Assembly: GCA_943354165.1 (NCBI GenBank)
Contig: CALRBH010000005.1
Coordinates: 18 to 64,017, forward strand
Direction of reading: 5' to 3'
Length of the DNA: 64,000 nt
From: Candidatus Uhrbacteria bacterium RIFOXYB12_FULL_58_10
Lineage (GTDB): Bacteria; Patescibacteriota; Patescibacteriia; UBA9934; GWF2-40-263
Position numbers and translations under genes: made by a program
The notes under the pieces: model-generated
What the model saw: the letters and a program-made list of their open reading frames with translations, nothing else
What the model was told of the DNA's origin: nothing
Database searches by the model: none
In this document: in pieces, positions 1 through 44,211 of the stretch
Position numbering within the stretch: position 1 is the first letter of the stretch
Layout of the letters: the number at the start of each line of letters is the position of its first letter

Positions 1-3000
1 TACACTCAATGGCGCCCGTATTCTTCTCGAGCGACTCGGTGTCGCGGAAGAAGTATGGGAGGCCGACGCGATGTTCCGTGGTGCGGTCGGTCGGATCGCG
101 GAACTCCGTACACTGGTCGAACTGTTGGGCGCACAGGCCGACGAATCCGCGGTAGGCGGCGTCGCCGTTGGTCGGCATCAGGAATTCATTTCCTCCGCGG
201 GCGCGCGGCGTATCGATGCCGAGCGTGAAGGCCAAGTCGTTGTTTACGTCCACGTATTCGCATGGTTCGTTCGTTCCCTTGCGGAACCAGCCGAAGAATC
301 GGCGGCTGCTGATGGAAACGTCCGTCTTGTACTCACAGTTCTGGCCAAGCGGGTTCTTGAAGTAGAAGTTGCCGTCCTTGGTGGACTTCCATTCGTCGCA
401 GAACAGCGCTTCGTGGCTGCAGAGCGTGTTCTTAAACACCTCATCGCCGTAAATGAGCGGATCAATGATGAGGAACTCGGAGTCAAACTTGGTGACCCGG
501 CTCTTATCGAGGTTGAACACTGGCACACCCACTTCCTCACACCCAACGGCTTCCGGAGAACACTGCCCTGCCCCGTTGTTCACAAGGAAGACAGGAACGT
601 CATTTGGAATCACGCGGGTTTCCGGACCGAGCTGGGCGGCGTTTTCTTCCGTGACGTTGCGAATGGTTCGGATCGCACCATCAAAGTCAAAGAGGCAGAA
701 CGTCTTACCTGGCTGGATGGTGCAGACGTTAGGGTTGGAGAGGTACCGGCAAGCCCCTACTGGACCGACGCAGCGCGCATTATGCGTTTCTCCGTATGGC
801 GAGGTGCTGTTGCGTTCATCGTAGAACGCCTCGCAGCCGACTTTCTGCTCCGAGCAGAGGCTGGTGAACTGGTAGAACGAGTGGCTCTGGCTGGCGCGGT
901 CCGTATAGCCCTCACAGCCGAGGAAGAACTGCGGGCTCGCGGCGCCGGTTGGCGTCTGGTCACAGGACGCTGGGACCACGAAGGAACCCTTGATGAGGGT
1001 GATGTTGTCCTCGACCTGCTTCAGGACAATGTTGTCGAGGAAGATGTCATCACTGCCGCTTGCATGAGCAAAGCGAAGGATCGCCGTGTCGGTAATCTCT
1101 GGAATCAACGATGCATCGAGCGGTCCTACCGAGTATGGAAGCCAGCCCTGCGTGAGCGTAACGGCTGGACCAAAGCTGCTTGCGATCCCGCTTCCATTGC
1201 TTGGAATAAGCGTTGCAGCGAGAGGTCCTGTCCCTTTTGCCCAGAACTCAAGGACAAAGGTCTTACCGGCCACCAGCTTCCCTTCGAAATCACCGTACGA
1301 CACGTTACCGAAACCCGTCACGCGCATCGAATGACCGCCTGCTGACACAGACTCATTGGAGACCGTTGGGGTTGCCCCACCGGCTCCGACCCATGGAGCG
1401 AAGGTACCGCTTTCAAACGATTCATTGATAACAGTCGTCGCGTTGCGCCCAGCGCCGCCGGTGTAAGAACGGCAACCGGATGCGGCAGCTGGACACTGCA
1501 CGCTTTCAGACGGGAGACCGAGATAGCGACAATCGCCGTTTGGCAAGGAGAATCCGCCCGTGGAGTTACAGTCCGCAGAAGTAGGCGCGGCGGTCTTACG
1601 ATACTGATTACAACCGACGTCCACGGTGACGGTCTTTGAGAAAAGACGATAATGAATCGCGCCGGCGCCATCGTAGAACTCACGACAATCTGGATTTGTA
1701 AAAATATCCGTGTGCTCATTACAGGAACTGTCTGCCGCGAGAACAGCGATGGAGTCGTTGCAGGTTCGTACTGTCTCGGAAAGCATCGATGAAGACGTAC
1801 ATGGAGCAGCTCCTGCGCTCGCATCGTTGGCTGGAGCTGGAATCGAAGGCTGGACTGCGTTGTTCGCTGGCTGCGTATAATCAATCACCGAGTTCGTGGT
1901 GAGATTAGACTTGAGCAACGTAAAACTCCGGAGCTGGAACCCTGACGTATCGGTTCCCTCCCAGGTGAAGAATGGCGCCTGTGTGCGATCAGCGGCGGCG
2001 GTTGCTACGGTAGATGCCTGTGCAGGATCCGGTAGCACGCACGCACGGAGGTCGGTATAGTGCTCAACGCTTTCTCCGCCGGCGCCAGGATTGAGATTGG
2101 TGAACGCGTCACATCCAACGAACTGCGCGTCACAAGACTGAGCCTTAGCGGGAATGAAGAACAATGGGAACTTGGAACCTTCATACTTGGTGGGTTCCTG
2201 CTTGAATGCCGCGTAACCGACGCATTCGCCTGGACACTGGTCTACGGCGGACGCGACGGCTGGGACGGATGGATCGCCGTCTTCCGGCGTGTAGAGCTCG
2301 CAGCCGACTTCCTGAGCCGAACAGACCTCTGCGTATTCATCACACTGCGCCGGATCCGTTGGGAGGCCCTTGCAGTTGAGATAAGCCGGAGGAACCTTGA
2401 GGGCAACGCTCTGCGCATTCGCATCGCTATATCCATTGGCAAAATCTGTGGCGCTTTCGCCGCGTTCGAGCTGGATCGCATCGACGAGAGAAGTTCCCGC
2501 AATGCGAATTTCCGCGAGGAGCGAGGTGGCACCGGTCGTGAACGTACATGAAGATCGAACGTATGCAGACGCGTTTGCTGTTGCCGGAGTTACGGAAACC
2601 GTATTTCCCGTGATGGTACATCCGCGTGCGTTTGTCCCGGCGATATTTGCCGCCGCACTTCCTCCGGCGAGCGTAGAGAGAACAATGCTTGCAGTTGGAA
2701 CGGTTGCGCCCTTGGATTCAAAGCTGAAGGTATAGAAGGATCCAGCGGAAAGCTCAATGTCCTTCTGAGAAATTGTGTCTATGGTGAGGTCTACGGCATT
2801 CCCGCCCTCTGCCGGATCAACCGATGGAGCTGGCAAGCCAGAGAACGTCCATCCCGCAAGCAACCCGCCTTCTTCATTTGGCGCCTCAAATCCAGGGTTG
2901 CGCACCTGGTTGAGCGTAACACCGGCCGCGCGCGTAAGTTCACCGCAGCCGACCTGGCTGCCGTCGCATTGCTTCACGTCCTTATTGAAATAGACGCGAT

Positions 3001-5041
3001 CTTCCGTGGCGTAAAGTCCTTCTTGCGTATTTGCGGCGGAACGAACGGCAAAAGTTTGAATCGCCGCATCATGCGCAGGAACGTTGTATGTGGCGCCCGT
3101 TGGCAGGAACGAGAAGGTGTCGTCTGTGGTGACAAGTGTTCCCTTTCCATCAAAGTATTTATTCACGCGGTACCAACGGCAACCGGCGTTCCCCTGGTTA
3201 CAGACGGAAAAATCTACCGTGTTCGCGAGGAAGGCAGTGCGCTCGTTATCGATGGTGTTGGTATAGGCAAGACAGCTTGCAAACTGTTCCGGACACTCTT
3301 CCCCGCGGAAGCGCCAGATGTTCTTTTCGCGCACGCAGTAGCCGAACCCGCCTGTACAGTTCCCCTTGCTGTCTTCCGAGAGACAGGAAAGCGTATCTGC
3401 ACAGTATGTGTTGCGCGCCCCTGAGGCTGAAGAAATCGGCACCTCGCCGTTCACAAAGGACTTACACTGTGTTTCCGGATATTTTAAAATCCAGTTTGGA
3501 TCGATGAGGTGGCAAAACGGATTCCCTCCTCCGCAATCGTTATACGAATCAACGATCTCTTTGAGGGTCTTAGGCGGATCAAACGACGCGTTGATGGTAG
3601 CAGCAATCTCCCAACCGACAGGAATAATGCGGGCCTTGCGCAGTTTCACAAGGTTGCCATAACAGAAGGCTGACGTATAACAGAACGGATCCTGATTTTT
3701 GGCTTTGTTCGTTGCTGGAAAAAGAGGCCAACTACCGTTCAATAAGCCTTCCTCTCCAGACATAGCATCGCGCACCGTGAGCGCGATCCCGGCGTCTGAG
3801 CGTGTGACGGCCGCGGCGAAATTCGGATCCATCACGCAGTTGTTGATGTTACGCGGGATGGTTCCTCCGGCCGGACACACCACAAACTCCGCCAGCAGGT
3901 TGTAGTTGGAGACGGAGATGGGGTTTGCTGTGATGAGCGACCTAAATTGCTCCTGGGCGGCTTCTCGGCCACCATTTGAAAGTGCTTCGATGTCAAACGG
4001 ATTGTCTCCCCCCACAAGCGGAGCCATCCCCTTTGAGATGCGGTCGATGGTGGTGGAGAGCAAGGTGTTCGTAAACGTAGACGCGACGTGTCCGAACAAT
4101 CCCCAGATGAGGTCGGCGTTATTGATGGCGTTCAGGATTTGGAGGTCTGCCGGCTTATCAGGATCTTCCAGTTGTGACTTTTTCACCTCAGCCTCAAGAA
4201 ACGAAGCTGGTGTCTGTACCTTGCCCGTAACCGTGTCTACAACATTCTTATACCCATTGTTAGCCAACTGTTCTTGAATATTGATCTGGCGTTTCTGGTT
4301 AGCCTGTTCCTGCGTCAAGAACGAGATGCTTATGGAAGCGGAAAGTTCGTTCCGTCCCGGAGACAATCCCGCTGAAAATCCTTTTAAAACCGCGCCGACC
4401 GGGTCCTGTGCCGTCGCCGATGTTGTCGCGATAAAACTCTCCCAGTTTTTTATGGTGGAATCAAAATCACATTTTGGCTTTCCTGGCTTGTACGCCTGCG
4501 CGATACCCAACTGAAGGGCGAGCTTAAACTCCGGCAACACGGGAGAACAGATATCAAACTTGATATCGAGTCCAGTGCTGATGACTTCCCCAAGCTGACC
4601 GATCGTCTCTCCGGCCACGTCCTTTCCAAACTTTGTCCAGGCATCCTCTGCGGTATCCGCGTACAAAAGAGGTGTTTGTCCCTTCCCTCCGGAAGCGATA
4701 AACACGGCGGATTCGTACGCAAGTCGATCCGTGACGAAGGTCAAGATGTTCAAAAGCCCGGTGACCAAGGCGATCTGCATGAGAGGGCTTACTACCAAAG
4801 TATCCACAGCGTGTGTGGCCGCTGCTGCACCTTTTGGTGGGTTTGGTGCCACCCCAGGAATCGCTCCACTCGCCGTTTCTAATGTAGCTTCAAGACCCCC
4901 GGAAACCGGGCTTGAAGGACCAGATGCTGCCAACGTCGGCCTCGGCATCAACAAAGCCGTAACCAGACCTCCCCCCACAAGCCCAACGACGGCGAGGGAA
5001 AGGAGAAATGCAGAAATGGACTGGCGGACCTTGAGCGACAT
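1..5041 (-). CDS. Giant cysteine-rich secreted/cell-surface protein, partial (C-terminus beyond window start). It has an N-terminal signal/TM segment, many Cys pairs and two CBM4_9-like beta-sandwich modules with GFE..GW motifs. More than 1,680 aa fall within the window.
   Basis: The reverse-complement frame starting at the ATG at 5041..5039 reads without any stop down to position 1. No long ORF is reported in the track for 1..5040, which fits a stop-less ORF running off the edge. The N-terminus MSLKVRQSISAFLLSLAVVGLVGG is hydrophobic, and the codon bias matches neighbouring genes. Confidence 0.75.
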   Translation of the reverse strand, partial: MSLKVRQSISAFLLSLAVVGLVGGGLVTALLMPRPTLAASGPSSPVSGGLEATLETASGAIPGVAPNPPKGAAAATHAVDTLVVSPLMQIALVTGLLNILTFVTDRLAYESAVFIASGGKGQTPLLYADTAEDAWTKFGKDVAGETIGQLGEVISTGLDIKFDICSPVLPEFKLALQLGIAQAYKPGKPKCDFDSTIKNWESFIATTSATAQDPVGAVLKGFSAGLSPGRNELSASISISFLTQEQANQKRQINIQEQLANNGYKNVVDTVTGKVQTPASFLEAEVKKSQLEDPDKPADLQILNAINNADLIWGLFGHVASTFTNTLLSTTIDRISKGMAPLVGGDNPFDIEALSNGGREAAQEQFRSLITANPISVSNYNLLAEFVVCPAGGTIPRNINNCVMDPNFAAAVTRSDAGIALTVRDAMSGEEGLLNGSWPLFPATNKAKNQDPFCYTSAFCYGNLVKLRKARIIPVGWEIAATINASFDPPKTLKEIVDSYNDCGGGNPFCHLIDPNWILKYPETQCKSFVNGEVPISSASGARNTYCADTLSCLSEDSKGNCTGGFGYCVREKNIWRFRGEECPEQFASCLAYTNTIDNERTAFLANTVDFSVCNQGNAGCRWYRVNKYFDGKGTLVTTDDTFSFLPTGATYNVPAHDAAIQTFAVRSAANTQEGLYATEDRVYFNKDVKQCDGSQVGCGELTRAAGVTLNQVRNPGFEAPNEEGGLLAGWTFSGLPAPSVDPAEGGNAVDLTIDTISQKDIELSAGSFYTFSFESKGATVPTASIVLSTLAGGSAAANIAGTNARGCTITGNTVSVTPATANASAYVRSSCTFTTGATSLLAEIRIAGTSLVDAIQLERGESATDFANGYSDANAQSVALKVPPAYLNCKGLPTDPAQCDEYAEVCSAQEVGCELYTPEDGDPSVPAVASAVDQCPGECVGYAAFKQEPTKYEGSKFPLFFIPAKAQSCDAQFVGCDAFTNLNPGAGGESVEHYTDLRACVLPDPAQASTVATAAADRTQAPFFTWEGTDTSGFQLRSFTLLKSNLTTNSVIDYTQPANNAVQPSIPAPANDASAGAAPCTSSSMLSETVRTCNDSIAVLAADSSCNEHTDIFTNPDCREFYDGAGAIHYRLFSKTVTVDVGCNQYRKTAAPTSADCNSTGGFSLPNGDCRYLGLPSESVQCPAAASGCRSYTGGAGRNATTVINESFESGTFAPWVGAGGATPTVSNESVSAGGHSMRVTGFGNVSYGDFEGKLVAGKTFVLEFWAKGTGPLAATLIPSNGSGIASSFGPAVTLTQGWLPYSVGPLDASLIPEITDTAILRFAHASGSDDIFLDNIVLKQVEDNITLIKGSFVVPASCDQTPTGAASPQFFLGCEGYTDRASQSHSFYQFTSLCSEQKVGCEAFYDERNSTSPYGETHNARCVGPVGACRYLSNPNVCTIQPGKTFCLFDFDGAIRTIRNVTEENAAQLGPETRVIPNDVPVFLVNNGAGQCSPEAVGCEEVGVPVFNLDKSRVTKFDSEFLIIDPLIYGDEVFKNTLCSHEALFCDEWKSTKDGNFYFKNPLGQNCEYKTDVSISSRRFFGWFRKGTNEPCEYVDVNNDLAFTLGIDTPRARGGNEFLMPTNGDAAYRGFVGLCAQQFDQCTEFRDPTDRTTEHRVGLPYFFRDTESLEKNTGAIEC

Positions 5042-5044
5042 ACG

Positions 5045-5671
5045 CTACGGCGTTGGGGTTTGAGTATCTACGGTCTGTTGAAAGGCTTCTCGGAACATCG
5101 TTTTCAACTCCTCATCTGTAAGGGTGTCGAGTTTTTCCTTGGGGACTCCGGCCTGCACAAGCATGGCCTTGAGCTGTTCTGGCGGCAGGTCCAGGAAGAT
5201 GTCCTTATACCCTTCCGCACTCTGGTAGTCGGCCGGAGCGTCTGGTTCTGTTGGCGGTGTTGCATTCACGGCGGCAGAAGGGCTTGCGGCCTCTTCCCCG
5301 CGTCCGCAATCTTTCCCTACCGGACAGTTTGGATCATTCCCGGAATACGTTTCCGTGCGGTCATCGAACCCATCTGAGTCAGAGTCGGCGAGGTAGGGGC
5401 TGGTCTTGAAGACGTAGAGCTCGTCGTAATCCACGAGACCGTCTCCGTCCGTGTCACGGGTCTTCATCGCCTCCTTGTCCGCGTCTTCCTTTTGCGAAGG
5501 GGTCAGGAATCGGTCCGCACTGAAGCGGGCGATCTGTGCATCGATCGGCGCACGGATGGAACTTCCAAACGCGTGGAACCCAAGGAACAGTCCCGCAATT
5601 CCCAAAACAATAATCAGAACAAAAGCCGCCTTTTGTTCCCGAGAAAGTTGCGTTCGGGGACGGACATCCAT
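5045..5671 (-). CDS. Membrane-anchored protein with thrombospondin type-3-like calcium-binding repeats (DTDGDGLVDYDE and DSDSDGFDD...NDPNCP)
   Basis: The 208-aa ORF has an N-terminal TM helix (AAFVLIIVLGIAGLFLGF) and two TSP3/OmpA-like Asp-rich motifs. Its stop lies 4 nt upstream of the giant gene start on the same strand. Confidence 0.7.
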   Translation of the reverse strand: MDVRPRTQLSREQKAAFVLIIVLGIAGLFLGFHAFGSSIRAPIDAQIARFSADRFLTPSQKEDADKEAMKTRDTDGDGLVDYDELYVFKTSPYLADSDSDGFDDRTETYSGNDPNCPVGKDCGRGEEAASPSAAVNATPPTEPDAPADYQSAEGYKDIFLDLPPEQLKAMLVQAGVPKEKLDTLTDEELKTMFREAFQQTVDTQTPTP

Positions 5672-5700
5672 AGGTACACAGGAAGTATACCAAAGGACGG

Positions 5701-5780
5701 AGTTAGTAGTAAGTAGATAGTAGTTAGTAGAGCTGACGGTGGAAACCCTACTACCTACTTACTACTATCTACTAACTAAG
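5701..5780. repeat. TAGTAG-family stop-codon-rich hairpin, copy T1 (arms of TTAGTAG/TAGATAG units, 17-nt loop)
   Basis: The left arm agttagtagtaagtagatagtagttagtag pairs with the right arm ctactacctacttactactatctactaactaag. Related copies occur at 8250..8326 and 34899..34997, with a half copy at 46400..46432. Confidence 0.85.
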
Positions 5781-6535
5781 ATCCCATGCAACCGCTTCCA
5801 CTGCTCGATCGAGACAATCTCCGCGCGGACGCGGGCGTCCAATCCGACGGCTTCTATGGCCGATTTTACGATGGCAGGTTCTCCATACCCTGCAGCCGTG
5901 AGGTTTCCGTGCATTTGTTTACGAGGATGGGAAAAACCAGCCTTTGCAAGCTTAATAATCGCTTCCATATCCCCGCCAGGAGGATATAAATCGAACCGCA
6001 CGATGGCTGAATCAACTTTTGGCACTGGCCGAAACACTTCGCGGGAGACGTTGAACACTTTTTTCACCTTTGCGTAGACCTGACAGGCCACCGCGAGCAG
6101 GCTCATGTTCGGCGACTCGGCGGTAATCCGGTCCGCCACTTCCCTCTGCACCATGAGGGTCATGCTCGTTGGGTACGGCTCGGTGGTCAGAAAACATTCG
6201 ATGATGGGAGAGGTGATGTTGTACGGAATGTTCGCGACGAGTTTGTATGGAGCGACCGGAAGAAGCGAGGCTGGCGTATTCAGCGCATCGCCTTCAATGA
6301 GGTTCAGCTTGTCGCCAAAGATTTCTTTGAGCGGTTCGATAAGGTCGTGGTCGGCTTCAATGGCGGTCACGATCGCTCCGGCTTCGATGAGCGCGTCAGT
6401 GAGGACGCCGGTGCCAGGGCCGATCTCAAGAACTCGGTCGCCGGGTTTTACCTCGGCGGCTTTGATGATGCGTTTCACGATGTTTTGGTCGGCGAGGAAG
6501 TTTTGACCAAAGGATTTCTTGGCGCGGGGAAGCAT
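5765..6535 (-). CDS. ksgA: 16S rRNA (adenine1518-N6/adenine1519-N6)-dimethyltransferase RsmA/KsgA
   Basis: The protein reads MLPRAKKSFGQNFLADQNIVKRII...LEIGPGTGVLTDAL...NIPYNITSP. The start is the internal ATG at 6535; the longer ORF up to 7204 is a frame artefact overlapping tsaC. The stop TAG lies within the T1 hairpin arm. Confidence 0.9.
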   Translation of the reverse strand: MLPRAKKSFGQNFLADQNIVKRIIKAAEVKPGDRVLEIGPGTGVLTDALIEAGAIVTAIEADHDLIEPLKEIFGDKLNLIEGDALNTPASLLPVAPYKLVANIPYNITSPIIECFLTTEPYPTSMTLMVQREVADRITAESPNMSLLAVACQVYAKVKKVFNVSREVFRPVPKVDSAIVRFDLYPPGGDMEAIIKLAKAGFSHPRKQMHGNLTAAGYGEPAIVKSAIEAVGLDARVRAEIVSIEQWKRLHGILVSR

Positions 6536-6544
6536 ACGAAATAT

Positions 6545-6614
6545 ATTGCCTGAGCTTGTCGAAGGCCACGCCGCGACCCTTCGACTTCGGCTGAGGCCTC
6601 CGCTCAGGGAATAA
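6545..6614. repeat. 70-bp palindromic intergenic element, copy A1 (stem gcctgagcttgtcgaagg / ccttcgacttcggctgaggc)
   Basis: Near-identical to 7206..7274. An 18-bp inverted repeat flanks an 11-nt loop, followed by ctccgctcagggaataa. It supplies the TGA stop and the last residues (..IP) of tsaC. Confidence 0.85.
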
Positions 6615-7197
6615 ATAGTGAGCCCTGTCTTAATACTACTAATTTCCCTTCTGAAAAAGCGATAATCGTTGAGGGTTTTCGCTTTGGGAGGCTGCCGGCG
6701 TCGATCAGGGCGTCTGGCTGGATCTTCGCATCTTTGAAGGCTTTTTGCACGGCTCGGGCGCTGTAACAGGCGGGTTCGCCGGATTGATTCGCGGAGGTGG
6801 AGACGATCGGGGCCGCGAGCGCTTTCGAGAGAGCCTGGGCGATAGGATGAGCAGAAACACGTAACGCGATCGTTCCGTCGGCTGCGACGACTTGAGGCGC
6901 GAGCTTCGCCTTCGATTGTTTTGGAAGCACCATCGTAAACGGACCTGGCCAGTGTGCGCGAGCTAACTTCGACGCTTCGATGGGAAAGGTCGCCCACTTC
7001 TTCGCCATCGCCGTCGTCGAGACGATCAACGGGACGGTTTTTTCCGGAGCGCGGCCTTTGATCGAAAAAACTTTCTCGACCGCCGACGCATTTCGGGCGT
7101 CCGCGGCGAGTCCATAACTCGTCTCGGTCGGGAATACGACAACTCCGCCCTCTCGAAGGATGCGGATCGCCTCTTTTGTCGAAACGACAGGAATCAT
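6604..7197 (-). CDS. tsaC: L-threonylcarbamoyladenylate synthase (TsaC/YrdC/Sua5 family)
   Basis: The 197-aa protein carries YrdC-like motifs (VVFPTETSYGLAADA, PIVSTSANQSGEP). Confidence 0.85.
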   Translation of the reverse strand: MIPVVSTKEAIRILREGGVVVFPTETSYGLAADARNASAVEKVFSIKGRAPEKTVPLIVSTTAMAKKWATFPIEASKLARAHWPGPFTMVLPKQSKAKLAPQVVAADGTIALRVSAHPIAQALSKALAAPIVSTSANQSGEPACYSARAVQKAFKDAKIQPDALIDAGSLPKRKPSTIIAFSEGKLVVLRQGSLFIP

Positions 7198-7205
7198 AAA
7201 CCATT

Positions 7206-8249: not shown

Positions 8250-8326
8250 GTTAGTAGTAAGTAGATAGTAGTTAGTAGGGTTGAATGACGGAAAACTACT
8301 ATCTACTTACTACTATCTACTATCTA
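8250..8326. repeat. TAGTAG-family hairpin, copy T2
   Basis: The arm gttagtagtaagtagatagtagttagtag pairs with ctactatctacttactactatctactatcta. It lies between the epimerase start and the prfB stop and provides the prfB TAG stop. Confidence 0.85.
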
Positions 8327-9422
8327 TCGATGCTTAAGCTCCTCCCGCAGGAACGCTTCCATAAACGGCTCTAGATCCCCTTCAAGCACCCCTTCCGCGT
8401 CCGACGTTTCATGCTCGGTTCGATGATCCTTCACGAGCTTGTACGGATGAAGCACGTACGAACGGATCTGATTTCCCCATTCAGCACTCTGATATTCACC
8501 ACGGAGGCGGGCGCGCTCGGCACGGCGCTCTTCTTCCTGCTTGGCGACGAGTTTGCCCATGAGAACTTTCATGGCCATCTCGCGGTTCTGTTTCTGGCTG
8601 CGTTCGTTCTGGCAGGAGACGGTGATGTTGGTTGGTAAGTGCACGATACGCACAGCGGAATAGGTTGTATTCACACTTTGTCCACCTTTTCCCCCAGCCA
8701 TGAAGGTATCGATGCGCAAATCTTTGGGATCAATGACGACCGCGGCGGATTCCTCGAGTTCAGGGATGACTTCGATGAGGGAGAACGTCGTGTGACGCAT
8801 TTTCTCGGCGTCGAACGGACTGATGCGGACCAAGCGGTGCACGCCGTGCTCGCTTTTCAGGTAGCCGTACGCGTACCGGCCGGAGACGCGGAACATGAGG
8901 CTCTTGAAGCCGACGGGTTCGCGCGCTTCTTCGAGAATTTCGATCTCAAATCCCTTCGCTTCGCAAAAGCGGGCGATCATACGGTAGAGCATGGCCGTCC
9001 AATCCTGCGCTTCCGTGCCGCCGCTGCCTGCGTGCATCGCGATGATCGCGTTGCTCACATCATGCGGACCGGAAAAGAGCGTCGCGAATTCCATCTTCGA
9101 AAATTTCGCTTCGAGTTCCTTAAGCTTGGTGGCAATGTCATCATGCATGCCGTCCTCGCCTTCTGCCTGCGCGAGTTCCGTCATGTCCTTCAGGTCATCG
9201 ACCTCCTTCAAAAAGCTTTCCCAGGTGGAAAGTTCGGTACGCATGTCCGCCGCTTCCTTCCCTAACCGCTTCGCACGTTCCTGATCCTGCCAGAAATCCG
9301 GCGCTTCCATCTTTTTCTCCAATTCCGATAACTTCGTCTTTATCGAATCCAGGTCAAAGCAACCCCCACGTGCGCACAGCGCGCTCGCGGAGGGCTTGGA
9401 TTTGGTGGAGGAGTTCTTTCAT
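8324..9422 (-). CDS. prfB: Peptide chain release factor 2 with programmed +1 ribosomal frameshift. Frame 0 is 9422..9357 and is followed by an in-frame TGA at 9356..9354. The +1 frame is 9355..8324.
   Basis: Upstream of the annotated ORF, frame 0 reads MKELLHQIQALRERAVRTWGLL and then hits TGA. The motif tgg ggg ttg CTT TGA C matches the canonical RF2 shift site (SD-like GGGGG, then CUU UGA C). After the +1 shift the frame reads DLDSIKTKLSELEKKMEAPDFW.., which aligns with RF2. The downstream SPF and GGQ motifs are present. Confidence 0.9.
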
Positions 9423-9772: not shown

Positions 9773-11742
<1,970 letters not shown>

Positions 11743-34621: not shown

Positions 34622-34698
34622 GGGTCCGTAGCTCAGTTGGTTAGAGCGCCGAGCTTATACCTCGGTGGTCGATGGTTCGAGTCCATCCGGACCCACCA
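34622..34698 (+). tRNA. tRNA-Ile (anticodon TAT), an unusual UAU anticodon, CCA encoded
   Basis: GGGTCCGTAGCTCAGTTGGTTAGAGCGCCGAGCTTATACCTCGGTGGTCGATGGTTCGAGTCCATCCGGACCCACCA has a 7-bp acceptor stem, the anticodon stem CCGAG/CTCGG and the loop CTTATAC. Confidence 0.8.
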
Positions 34699-41666: not shown

Positions 41667-43280
41667 TTACTCGCGCGCACCAGCAGGTGCTTCGCCTGAA
41701 TCAAATCGTTTTTGTGCGGCGCCAGGGGTGATACAGGAATCTAAAAGAGTCCCAGGGACAAATGCACATTTCTTGCCGATCTTTTGCTCCACACCACAAG
41801 GATCAGTCTCACACATCAGCTTGAGGGTTACTTCCCCCGACATAAAGTGTCCGGGTTGAAGATGGGTCATGCTCGTAATCGTTGTTCCCGTCGCCATTTC
41901 ATTTTGCACTTTCAAACTCTCATATTGTTCACAATTTTTTATGGTGTTGCAAACAATCGGAACCATCGCACATGTCCCTGTCGCCACATCATCTGCATAC
42001 CCCGCGACAAGTAGGGCTCCCGTCACCTTGGTCCCTGACCATAGGCTAGAGACAATAATCGACCCGGCACTGACAGCCGCCGCGGTTGTACCAACCACGC
42101 CAGATGCCGCTCCGACCGCTCCAACAGCCGCGGTCCCACCGCTGAGCACGAACGCAGCGGCTGCAGTTCCGATCGCAGCAGTAGCAAATGCGAGCATCTC
42201 ACCACCGCTCGAGATGGCATTAATGTCCTTTGTATAAAAGCACTGCTCTTTAGAAACTAACTTCTCGTTATTCATGACGACGTTCCTGGACAAGGTACTG
42301 CAAATTGCCGCCGAAGGAGGCACTTTACCTGGATTTCTGCTGGAGTCGGAAACCACCTCTTCACATCTCGTACAGATCCCTTTCCCATCTGGCTGAATTG
42401 CACACAGCTTGCCGGCCTCACCGTTACAATCTTTTCCTGTCACAGACCCTCGGAAAGAGCACAAGGAACCGTCAGCCTGTTCAACACCAGCTTCGTTTTT
42501 TATGATCACTCCTTTATCCCCACACTTCCCAGAAGTAATTGGTTTACTATTTTTATCACCAATCGTAAATTTTTTCTCAATCAATTCTTCGCAACTGAAC
42601 CCTCCGGTAAGAGCTACGTTCCGAGGCATCGGCATGCTTGGGACCTGTAATTTTACGAGCTGCGGGTTCACGGTGAAGAGAATTACGTAGGCACCCATAA
42701 GAAGAACGAGACCGATGACCGCATTTTGGATCATCCCCTTGGCCTTTGCCGTCTCCCCCGTCTGCGCCGCAAGGATATATCGCAACCCTCCGATCATCAA
42801 AAGGACGATTGCAATAGTGACTGATACCCCAAGCAAAAACTGGTAAGCCTTCTCAATATAATCCCCAAGGTCTGTCACAGTAATGACTCCTGCTCCAAGA
42901 GGAATGGAAAGTGAAATCCCTTCTGAATTGATTGGAAAACAATACCCTCGTTCTCGTGAGCATCTCGGGGCATCATCTTGAAACTCACCGGTTATTTTTC
43001 CATCAGGAGATTTGAAGGATGTGCATTGTTTTTTGGTAAAACAGAACAAGCCGGTGTCCGGATGTTGATCGAGTGTCTGTGCACAGACGATCATGGCATT
43101 TCCATCGCTGGCACAGGCAGCGCTACACGCCTCCGCAATTGTCTTTCCCTTAAGCTGCGCGAACTTACTCGTCTCGCACCAACAATCGCACGCAGGGCCC
43201 GACTGCGCGCCTGCTGGCATCGGCAACGCTAAGAGCAGTGTGGCGATAGAGAGGAGGATGGAGGCAAAGACACGTCGCAT
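41667..43280 (-). CDS. Cysteine-rich secreted protein with a central TrbC/VirB2-like double-TM hairpin and an Ala/Gly-rich region
   Basis: It has the signal peptide [25 protein letters not shown], about 30 Cys residues and two adjacent hydrophobic helices ([51 protein letters not shown]). It has its own terminator at 41627..41655. Confidence 0.6.
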
Positions 43281-43287
43281 ATCGGTT

Positions 43288-44007
43288 CTACTTGAGGGCC
43301 CGTTGAATAAGCGCGTCCAGGACATCGGCGGGGATAGATCCAGGGATCATGGTTCCGTTCACGAAGAAGGTCGGGGTGCCTTTCACGCCTGCGGCGACCC
43401 CATCGGCGAAATCGGCGGCGACTTCCTTTGCGTACTTTCCGCTCGAAAGACAGGAACGGAAGGTCGCCTCGTTCAAATTGAGCGCACGGGCGAAGGTCTG
43501 GAGCTCGTTTGCCGACACTACTGACTGGTTTGCGTAGATCTTATCGTGATATTCCCAAAACTTCCCCTGGTCCCCCGCGCAGTTGGCCGCTTGTGCCGCC
43601 ATCTCCGCGAGCGGATGAAGTTCCGTGATGGGAAAGTCCCGATAGATGAACCGAACCTTGTCTCCATATTTGAGCGCGGCTGATCGAACGACGAAACTAG
43701 ACTCGCGCGAGTACGGACAGCCGAAGTCGGCGAACTCCACGATGGTGATCGGGGCCTTGGCGTTTCCAAGGGACGGATCGTCCGTGGTCGCCACGTTCGT
43801 CGAAGTTCCTGTAAGAGGGATGGAAGCGGCGATGGAGCTCGGGGTGTAGGCGGAAAGAAAGGCGAGTTGCGACGGATCGAGTTCCCCGGAGCGGATGAGA
43901 CGCGCGTAGTGGGTCACGCGCCACGCGAATACCCCAAACGCACCGATTGCACAGATGATGGCAACCCCTCCAAGCACTCGCCCAATTCTGATGCGCCCTC
44001 CCCACAT
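43288..44007 (-). CDS. DsbA-family thiol:disulfide oxidoreductase, membrane-anchored (CPYS active site)
   Basis: It has a TM anchor followed by a thioredoxin fold with FGCPYSRE. The start is at MWGGRIR; the ORF extends to 44163. Confidence 0.75.
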   Translation of the reverse strand: MWGGRIRIGRVLGGVAIICAIGAFGVFAWRVTHYARLIRSGELDPSQLAFLSAYTPSSIAASIPLTGTSTNVATTDDPSLGNAKAPITIVEFADFGCPYSRESSFVVRSAALKYGDKVRFIYRDFPITELHPLAEMAAQAANCAGDQGKFWEYHDKIYANQSVVSANELQTFARALNLNEATFRSCLSSGKYAKEVAADFADGVAAGVKGTPTFFVNGTMIPGSIPADVLDALIQRALK

Positions 44008-44211
44008 AGTGAAAGGAAGTATATCATGGTGAGGTATGGAGGAGCACGAGCGGGACGTCCGTACTACGGACGAAAAATTCAAGAAACGGCAGAAGAAGCT
44101 CCGGCCGACGATGAAGGTGAGCGGACGTGGGATGAAACGCTTTGCAGGACGCAAGATCCCCAAGCGTTGACGTAAGAGGTTACTTTTGATAGATTCTTGC
44201 CAACCAAATCT

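Follow-up and report, generated by a model that had tools for sequence, protein, structure and literature searches.

A giant cysteine-rich protein with carbohydrate-binding-like modules and its conserved pairing with a small, putatively calcium-binding membrane protein in Uhrbacteria and similar Patescibacteria

To our knowledge, little has been learnt, outside a few cultivated Saccharibacteria, of how Patescibacteria of the candidate phyla radiation (CPR) make contact with other cells, recognise them and exploit them, and we know of no candidate contact apparatus so far for the Uhrbacteria branch. The first few kilobases of a 64,000-nt stretch of DNA from Candidatus Uhrbacteria bacterium RIFOXYB12_FULL_58_10 (contig CALRBH010000005.1; hereafter "the window", whose positions serve as coordinates throughout) raise this question directly. 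There, on the minus strand, a small gene for a putative membrane protein is followed by a reading frame that opens at an ATG at position 5041 and runs off the edge of the window. What does this giant frame encode, and what might it do together with its small partner? We find that the giant protein belongs to a large family of cysteine-rich proteins with two modules resembling carbohydrate-binding modules (CBMs), and that its pairing with the small gene is conserved. We consider it somewhat probable that the pair forms a membrane-tethered, glycan-binding surface fibre with a calcium-binding membrane partner.

The locus came to attention through a sequence-only reading, which held that the minus-strand frame is free of stops from 5041 to the window edge and that it is missing from the list of open reading frames (ORFs) because it leaves the window. 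Both points hold. Retranslation gave 1,680 sense codons (2..5041) and zero stops, and ORFs that run off the window are not listed. With a stop probability of 0.0377 per codon, taken from the local base composition, 1,680 open codons would arise by chance with a probability of ~1e-28. The 208-aa product of the partner gene is encoded identically on ENA scaffold MEHR18-3_SAMN08297413_METAG-scaffold_448 (66,001 bp), which extends 1,008 nt past the window; extending the contig in this way, as had been suggested, lengthens the stop-free giant ORF to 2,016 codons, at which point the contig ends. The window and the scaffold differ at 3 nt (window positions 8, 20 and 69), with a single difference in translation (R in TTEHRVGLPYF in the window, L in the scaffold), so that the two are probably separately deposited versions of one scaffold. 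An earlier size estimate of more than 1,680 aa was right in that the protein is real and giant, and fell far short of its true length: 2,016 codons lie on the contig, and homologues have ~3,000-3,400 aa. Judging from those homologues, the full protein is probably ~3,100-3,300 aa long, and the window holds roughly its N-terminal half. The giant gene is by far the largest seen in the window. A 424-aa plus-strand ORF at 71-1345 is an antisense shadow within it, and a promoter and terminator scan of positions 4900-6000 yielded nothing informative.

The ENA gene call starts the giant gene at Met88 (position 10892 of scaffold_448, window position 4780), and so loses the signal peptide. We regard ATG 5041 as the better start, because the hydrophobic N-terminal segment upstream of Met88 is conserved in homologues, as is the region of aa 1-87 as a whole. 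Residues 1-39 (4925..5041, minus strand) are predicted to be a Sec-type signal peptide or signal anchor, with a K/R-containing n-region, a 24-aa hydrophobic core and a putative cleavage site between PRPTLAA and SG. An N-terminal hydrophobic segment is present in 135 of 142 complete homologues, and it is followed by an AXA-like motif in all 49 homologues tested. The giant protein had been described as signal-anchored, and the predicted Sec-type segment agrees with that description, whether it acts as a cleavable signal peptide or as an anchor.

A database search with the 2,016 aa returned 159 relatives, almost all of 2,950-3,450 aa and carrying the name "hypothetical protein", from Candidatus Uhrbacteria or Patescibacteria; identity reaches 54%, over 100% of the query, in the closest. 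With aa 88-700 as the sole query, an exhaustive phmmer search retrieved 1,230 cluster representatives (E<=1e-3), 884 of them at E<=1e-30. The top 150 of these matches are nearly all proteins of 2,500-3,700 aa in which the match begins at residue ~60-100. When one genome per species was scanned, at least 569 stretches were found to encode relatives of the giant protein; our statements on contigs, assemblies and taxa rest on the best 80 of these. No two of the 80 loci share a contig or, judged by accession prefix, an assembly, so that there is no second locus among them. Their sources are Uhrbacteria, a single Falkowbacteria and numerous Patescibacteria bins, not all of which are correctly labelled; Uhrbacteria and Falkowbacteria both fall within the Parcubacteria group. 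The family thus appears to be large, unannotated and uncharacterised and, among the listed loci, confined to Uhrbacteria, Falkowbacteria and similar Patescibacteria. A literature search found no description of the family or of its pairing with a small membrane protein, and nothing that describes pairs of giant Cys-rich surface proteins and calcium-binding partners as typical. A 2026 preprint on the Pam pilus concerns other CPR classes and unrelated proteins.

The family is rich in cysteines. The part of the giant protein in the window has 56 Cys (3.3%), and family members that we examined have 3.3-4.5%; nearly every Cys is invariant. Complete members have a median of 138 Cys, and the count in the mature part is even in 137 of 142 (binomial p 1.7e-34), which bears out the dense Cys pairs noted at first sight. 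The window protein has no CxxC spacing; its commonest Cys gaps are 5-6 residues, and His makes up 0.7%. We infer from parity and spacing that the full protein forms ~70 disulfides rather than metal clusters. The Cys pattern, the Sec-type N-terminus, the CBM-like modules and the partner with its thrombospondin type-3 (TSP3) repeats all point to an extracellular location. Could the frame instead be a chance or decaying ORF, or encode a cytoplasmic metal-binding protein? The ENA start at codon 88 could make the helix at aa 85-115 the first hydrophobic segment of the protein, and a single DsbA-like protein was seen in the window, with CPYS rather than CxxC at its active site. Set against this are the chance probability given above, hundreds of full-length homologues with invariant residues, the Cys parity, the lack of CxxC and low His content of the query, the extracellular types of module (CBM and TSP3) in the two proteins, and the conservation of aa 1-87. 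Homology and the parity statistics effectively refute this explanation, and we consider it extremely improbable.

The giant protein contains two predicted jelly-roll modules. The sequence-only reading had proposed at least two CBM4_9-like modules on the basis of two motifs, which we located at aa 715-733 and aa 1207-1217 (ESFESGTFAPW), and Pfam, hhalign, AlphaFold2 (AF2) with Foldseek, and a family profile support two such modules. Module 2 (aa ~1196-1345; 1007..1456, minus strand), which starts with NESFESGTFAPW and ends with FLDNIVLKQVE, passes the Pfam model CBM_4_9 (PF02018) at aa 1203-1273, scoring 33.2 bits against a gathering cut-off of 25.9 (E 7.7e-8); the corresponding scores in homologues P0001 and P0178 are 30.0 and 37.3. 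Module 1 (aa ~700-870; 2432..2944, minus strand), which starts with NPGFEAP...GW and ends with VDAIQLERGE, gave no direct Pfam match. It aligns to module 2 in hhalign with a probability of 90.7% (E 1.3e-6), or 94.9% in P0001. Module 1 is the most variable folded module of the giant protein (conservation 0.46), as would be expected of a module that determines ligand specificity. The profile of the giant family matched CBM16 (E 0.003, module 1) and the CBM4 of a laminarinase (E 0.014, module 2) in the PDB, both weakly, and no other entries. AF2 models were built from alignments of 28 sequences and are probably of limited quality; that of aa 691-1680 is all-beta with a mean predicted local distance difference test (pLDDT) score of 73, and ~75-90 in both jelly-rolls. 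Foldseek matched this model to the CBM22 structure 4xup (E 6e-8; template modelling (TM) score 0.70 on the target), and also to the CBM4 structure 3p6b, CBM16 and CBM29. By analogy with these families, the two modules may bind carbohydrate.

The remainder of the modelled region consists of Cys-rich beta modules. Those at aa 871-1195 (1457..2431, minus strand) contain 18 Cys and a recurrent C-x5-G-C-x2-[YF] motif, with a conservation of 0.61 and AF2 pLDDT values mostly >70; a second copy of some of this stretch follows module 2. A further Cys-rich beta region, recognised from the translation, the AF2 model and conservation, occupies aa 1346-1680 (2..1006, minus strand) and runs off the window. 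The sole internal repeat in P0001 (3,127 aa) is a unit made up of a CBM and the Cys module that follows it, consistent with one ancient duplication. When the 1,680-aa fragment and full-length homologues were searched by sequence against Pfam, NCBIfam and PDB, only CBM_4_9 and one DUF7107 were returned. Some 90% of the length of the giant protein is without a Pfam or structural assignment. We considered and rejected a phage origin: a viral library gave only generic similarity to tail fibres with multiple beta-sandwiches.

The N-terminal part of the protein is specific to the family. Residues 85-379 (3905..4789, minus strand) are predicted by AF2, at low confidence, to be helical, and include a conserved hydrophobic helix with a DRLAYE motif. 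We rejected the helix at aa 85-115 as a second transmembrane segment: its mean Kyte-Doolittle value is 1.33, only 25% of family members reach 1.6, and ~3,000 Cys-rich, CBM-bearing residues would then be cytoplasmic. The most conserved core follows at aa 380-640 (3122..3904, minus strand; conservation 0.66). It includes GNLVKLRKARIIPVGWE and HLIDPNWILKYPETQC, 15 Cys, a KLRKAR patch and the invariant residues R468, R471, E478, D514, R543, D549 and E572. Residues 85-640 had no match in Pfam, NCBIfam, PDB (sequence or profile) or Foldseek. The AF2 model of aa 1-700 has a mean pLDDT of 52.5, with values of 75-90 at aa ~400-520, and a Foldseek search of PDB with this low-confidence model found nothing (best E 0.9).

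A conserved core with invariant charged residues next to CBM-like modules could also indicate a secreted effector or enzyme that targets glycans, in which aa 380-640 would be an unrecognised catalytic or lytic domain that the CBM-like modules deliver to prey, host or polymers. Such a protein would resemble CBM-bearing toxins (Vip3, Cry) or multi-modular glycanases. CBMs are most often appended to enzymes, the part of the protein with the highest conservation is also where the invariant Arg, Glu and Asp are found, the giant protein has no retention motif, and the Foldseek matches include Vip3 and Cry toxins and phage receptor-binding proteins. However, those toxin and phage matches have TM scores of ~0.1-0.15 and a very high root-mean-square deviation (rmsd), and reflect shared beta-sandwich modules only. 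No catalytic family emerged from Pfam, NCBIfam, PDB sequence, PDB profile or Foldseek searches, the putative catalytic part adjoins the signal peptide and would sit at the membrane-proximal end, and a protein so strictly paired with a membrane protein more probably belongs to a complex that stays with the cell. We therefore regard an effector or enzyme as decidedly unlikely.

The pairing is the second main feature of the locus. The partner gene (5045..5671, minus strand; 208 aa plus stop; identified as an ORF and from the match to scaffold_448) is predicted to encode a type II membrane protein with a calcium-binding ectodomain. It had been placed four nucleotides upstream of the giant ATG; the spacing is in fact 3 nt (CGT), in frame, with the TAG stop at 5047-5045. 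From the sequence and Kyte-Doolittle values we predict a single transmembrane helix at aa ~15-35 (AAFVLIIVLGIAGLFLGFHAF; 5567..5629, minus strand), preceded by R/K residues; partner homologues have Kyte-Doolittle maxima of 1.8-2.8 at aa ~18-40. Two TSP3-type calcium-binding loops follow, DTDGDGLVDYDE at aa 73-84 and DSDSDGFDDRTE at aa 96-107 (5351..5455, minus strand), which are tandem copies of a DxDxDGxxDxxE motif whose acidic (D/E) positions are invariant across 57 partner sequences. After the loops comes an invariant CPxGxxC pair (C116, C122). The window partner itself scores 14.3 bits against the Pfam family TSP3_bac (PF18884), for which the cut-off is 25. PF18884 is matched at E<=0.01 by 31 of the 57 close family members (best 6.6e-10), and several relatives have precomputed PF18884 matches; these support the proposal of a small upstream membrane protein with TSP3 calcium loops. 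Past a low-complexity linker, aa ~160-205 (5057..5194, minus strand) form a predicted small helical domain with conserved L171, G175 and D186; five of the 57 members have a weak SAM_2 match in this block (best E 1.2e-5). A profile of the partner family gave weak matches in PDB to EF-loops and helical repeats. The family comprises 529 relatives of ~230 aa, whose NCBI locus tags adjoin those of giants.

An ORF of ~190-290 aa ends at the inferred giant start in 67 of the 69 loci with enough upstream DNA, and the product of each begins with a hydrophobic helix and carries the strict DxDxDGxxD motif once or twice. The operon-like pairing of small and giant genes is therefore conserved. One of the two exceptions shares its contig with an examined locus at which a small ORF with two loops directly precedes the giant gene, and is for this reason probably an artefact of ORF picking. 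Two distant Uhrbacteria genomes have the identical gene order groES-groEL-MamF/MmsF-prfB-epimerase-ksgA-[small]-[giant], with gaps of 1-2 nt between small and giant genes.

Several observations on the flanks of the pair may be recorded here. Downstream of the giant gene, and no more than a few kb from it, both of these Uhrbacteria genomes have a gene that weakly matches Y1_Tnp (IS200-like transposase); it directly follows the giant gene in one genome and is three genes away in the other. A protein of 212-216 aa with no assigned function, encoded on the opposite strand, is also found close by in both. Upstream of the pair in the window, a 479-aa ORF at 5765-7204 (minus strand) is unmatched by the ENA gene calls, which place ksgA (RrnaAD, 256 aa) at ~5765-6535 and a Sua5/YciO/YrdC gene at 6604-7197.

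We compared the divergence of the pair with that of its neighbours, using identities between the window genome and the two other Uhrbacteria. These are 83 and 73% for GroEL, 71 and 68% for PrfB, 55 and 52% for KsgA, 53 and 56% for the epimerase, 46 and 43% for the partner, and 44 and 38% for the giant protein. The pair thus diverges faster than core housekeeping genes, yet is alignable from end to end.

How might the giant protein be held at the cell surface? Searches of the 142 complete homologues for known signals were uniformly negative: none has an LPXTG motif within the last 60 aa, a type IV pilin class III signal (G followed by F/M-T-L-x-E), a lipobox (L-x-x-C) where the signal peptide ends, or three or more GGxGxD repeats-in-toxin (RTX) motifs. 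There is no C-terminal hydrophobic segment or transmembrane helix, no Pfam or NCBIfam match to an S-layer homology (SLH) or related wall-anchoring domain, and no Pfam match to Ig-like repeats. The C-terminus of homologues is instead a conserved QPRVxVxDNWGWCTG...NPWVxFxG domain.

We propose the following model for the pair. The two proteins of this Uhrbacteria-like Patescibacterium would be co-translated and would both belong to the extracellular part of its envelope. Sec would export the giant protein by way of its N-terminal hydrophobic segment. Oxidative folding would then yield an extended and mostly non-repetitive series of small beta modules, held fast by ~70 disulfides, in which two lectin-type (CBM_4_9/CBM22-like) jelly-rolls are set. 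The family-specific N-terminal 550 aa of the giant protein would stay near the membrane. The ectodomain of the partner, with its TSP3 loops and small helical domain outside the cell, would dock, stabilise or help assemble the giant protein in a calcium-dependent manner. The CBM-like modules, projecting from the cell, would attach to glycans of another cell or of a polymer surface, as would the C-terminal domain at the far end. Surface location, tethering by the partner, and glycan or host binding are each what we infer from the features above, and a role of the pair in adhesion or in attachment of an episymbiont to its host may be envisaged from the architecture.

A number of points weigh against this model. 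Classical adhesins are repetitive and fast-evolving; by contrast, the giant protein is non-repetitive, has an invariant Cys framework and evolves only somewhat faster than its less conserved housekeeping neighbours. The invariant R, E and D residues of the aa 380-640 core could also be those of an enzyme or of a specific binding site, and CBM folds serve purposes besides adhesion. The AF2 model of aa 1-700 is poor, which makes the membrane-proximal or docking role of this part a guess. As there is no anchoring motif, retention would rest wholly on the presumed interaction with the partner if the signal peptide is cleaved. Lastly, we found no characterised homologue of the giant protein.

Some of the same observations would suit a structural part of the cell's own envelope, such as a wall or S-layer scaffold whose CBM-like modules bind the cell's own peptidoglycan or secondary wall polymers. 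The best 80 loci lie on different contigs and assemblies, and the position of the pair among housekeeping genes is conserved; the Cys framework is invariant and the protein non-repetitive; and divergence is moderate, with 38-44% identity for the giant protein compared with 52-56% for KsgA and the epimerase. Anionic wall polymers could be a ligand of the conserved core, by way of its basic KLRKAR patch. Moreover, TSP3 repeats occur in envelope-linking proteins, and the partner has weak NCBIfam matches to two TSP3 proteins, MtsD and CglD. However, S-layer proteins are usually poor in Cys, and many carry SLH or other wall-binding domains, none of which was found here, although a novel type of S-layer would be compatible with this; a single chain of ~3,100 aa would be an unusual lattice subunit; and the variable module 1 suits an external, changing ligand better than a conserved self-ligand. 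We consider an envelope scaffold unlikely.

The surface-fibre model can also be taken further. An extracellular organelle that defines the Uhrbacteria/Falkowbacteria branch may have the pair at its core: a fibre made of a single polypeptide and locked by ~70 disulfides, with a length on the order of 100 nm by a rough estimate, in which a 550-aa N-terminal domain of new fold docks in a calcium-dependent manner on a dedicated TSP3 receptor in the membrane. Such an organelle would be the principal contact or feeding device of the cell and would depend on non-canonical oxidative folding, an idea suggested by the CPYS variant of the only DsbA-like protein seen in the window. This extended proposal is improbable as a whole, and we put it forward as speculation.

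That DsbA-like protein (43288-44163, minus strand) matches Thioredoxin_4 (E 5e-28) and DSBA (E 7e-21). The sequence-only reading had pointed to it, together with a Cys-rich pilin-like gene, as lying near the giant gene and fitting the same theme. Both genes exist, at a distance of 36-38 kb. The DsbA-like protein is indeed present, although its active site is CPYS rather than CxxC, and it lends the theme weak support. A CPYS DsbA-like protein is odd in a genome that encodes a protein with ~70 inferred disulfides. The product of the pilin-like gene (41667-43325, minus strand) has 552 aa, among them 26 Cys (4.7%), and combines a signal peptide with a T4SS_pilin domain (PF18895; 31.1 bits against a cut-off of 26.6). 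The coordinates of this gene overlap those of the DsbA-like ORF by 38 nt, and a look-up found no identical gene call for it. Elsewhere in the window, prfB (8324-9421, minus strand) has a programmed +1 frameshift site, CTT TGA C, at 9359; a short upstream frame, MKELLHQIQALRERAVRTWGLL followed by a stop, runs via the +1 frame into a 332-aa ORF. ARAGORN called a tRNA-Ile with anticodon UAU at 34622-34698 (plus strand); a tRNA-Ile(UAU) is an unusual bacterial means of decoding AUA.

The small/giant pair is a candidate contact apparatus for the Uhrbacteria branch, and it offers pieces that could be expressed for experiments: both CBM-like modules, the ectodomain of the partner and, from the N-terminal part of the giant protein, the conserved core. 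The ~70 inferred disulfides per molecule also raise the question of extracellular oxidative folding in such organisms.

The pair resembles several known systems in part. Like the RTX-type, type I secreted proteins LapA, SiiE and MpIBP, the giant protein has thousands of residues, a presumed extracellular location, a link to calcium and lectin-type modules on a long extender, and probably also a dedicated means of retention at its N-terminal end. LapA, SiiE and MpIBP have dozens of near-identical Ig-like repeats and C-terminal RTX repeats, and use a type I secretion system; by contrast, the giant protein has no RTX repeats, a Sec-type N-terminus, almost no repeats and ~70 inferred disulfides, and its calcium loops are on a separate partner protein. 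It also resembles the giant surface proteins of DPANN and CPR episymbionts (e.g. SPEARE, Nanohaloarchaeota) in being a very large, presumably secreted protein of an ultra-small organism with a reduced genome. Those proteins have been proposed to mediate host contact, and SPEARE proteins carry protease- and nuclease-type domains. We detected no sequence relationship between the giant protein and SPEARE, and no protease- or nuclease-type domains in Pfam searches. Giant proteins of nanohaloarchaea are mentioned elsewhere (PMC10266531).

At the level of single modules, there is a likeness to the CBM_4_9, CBM22 and CBM16 modules of glycoside hydrolases: both modules have the jelly-roll, the N-x-[GS]-F-E...W start and the [FY/V]-[IVL]-D-[DN/A]-[IV]-x-L end. 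Unlike in glycoside hydrolases, no recognisable catalytic domain is attached, and identity to solved CBMs is 13-19%. For Vip3 and Cry toxins, matches are limited to the CBM-like modules (TM score ~0.12-0.15, rmsd >30 Å), and the low-confidence N-terminal model has no match. The partner shares DxDxDGxxDxxE loops with Myxococcus MtsD, with CglD and with OmpA-like TSP3 proteins; unlike these, it is a 208-aa single-pass protein with two loops only and no VWA or OmpA domain, and its weak NCBIfam match scores 24 bits against an equivalog cut-off of 800. The dockerin-cohesin system of cellulosomes offers a purely conceptual likeness, in that a small, duplicated calcium-loop module attaches a large CBM-bearing protein to an anchor; we detected no homology to dockerin or cohesin, and tethering by the partner is here our proposal. 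What sets the giant family apart from known giant surface proteins is its non-repetitive make-up, its probable wealth of disulfides and its obligate pairing with a TSP3 membrane protein.

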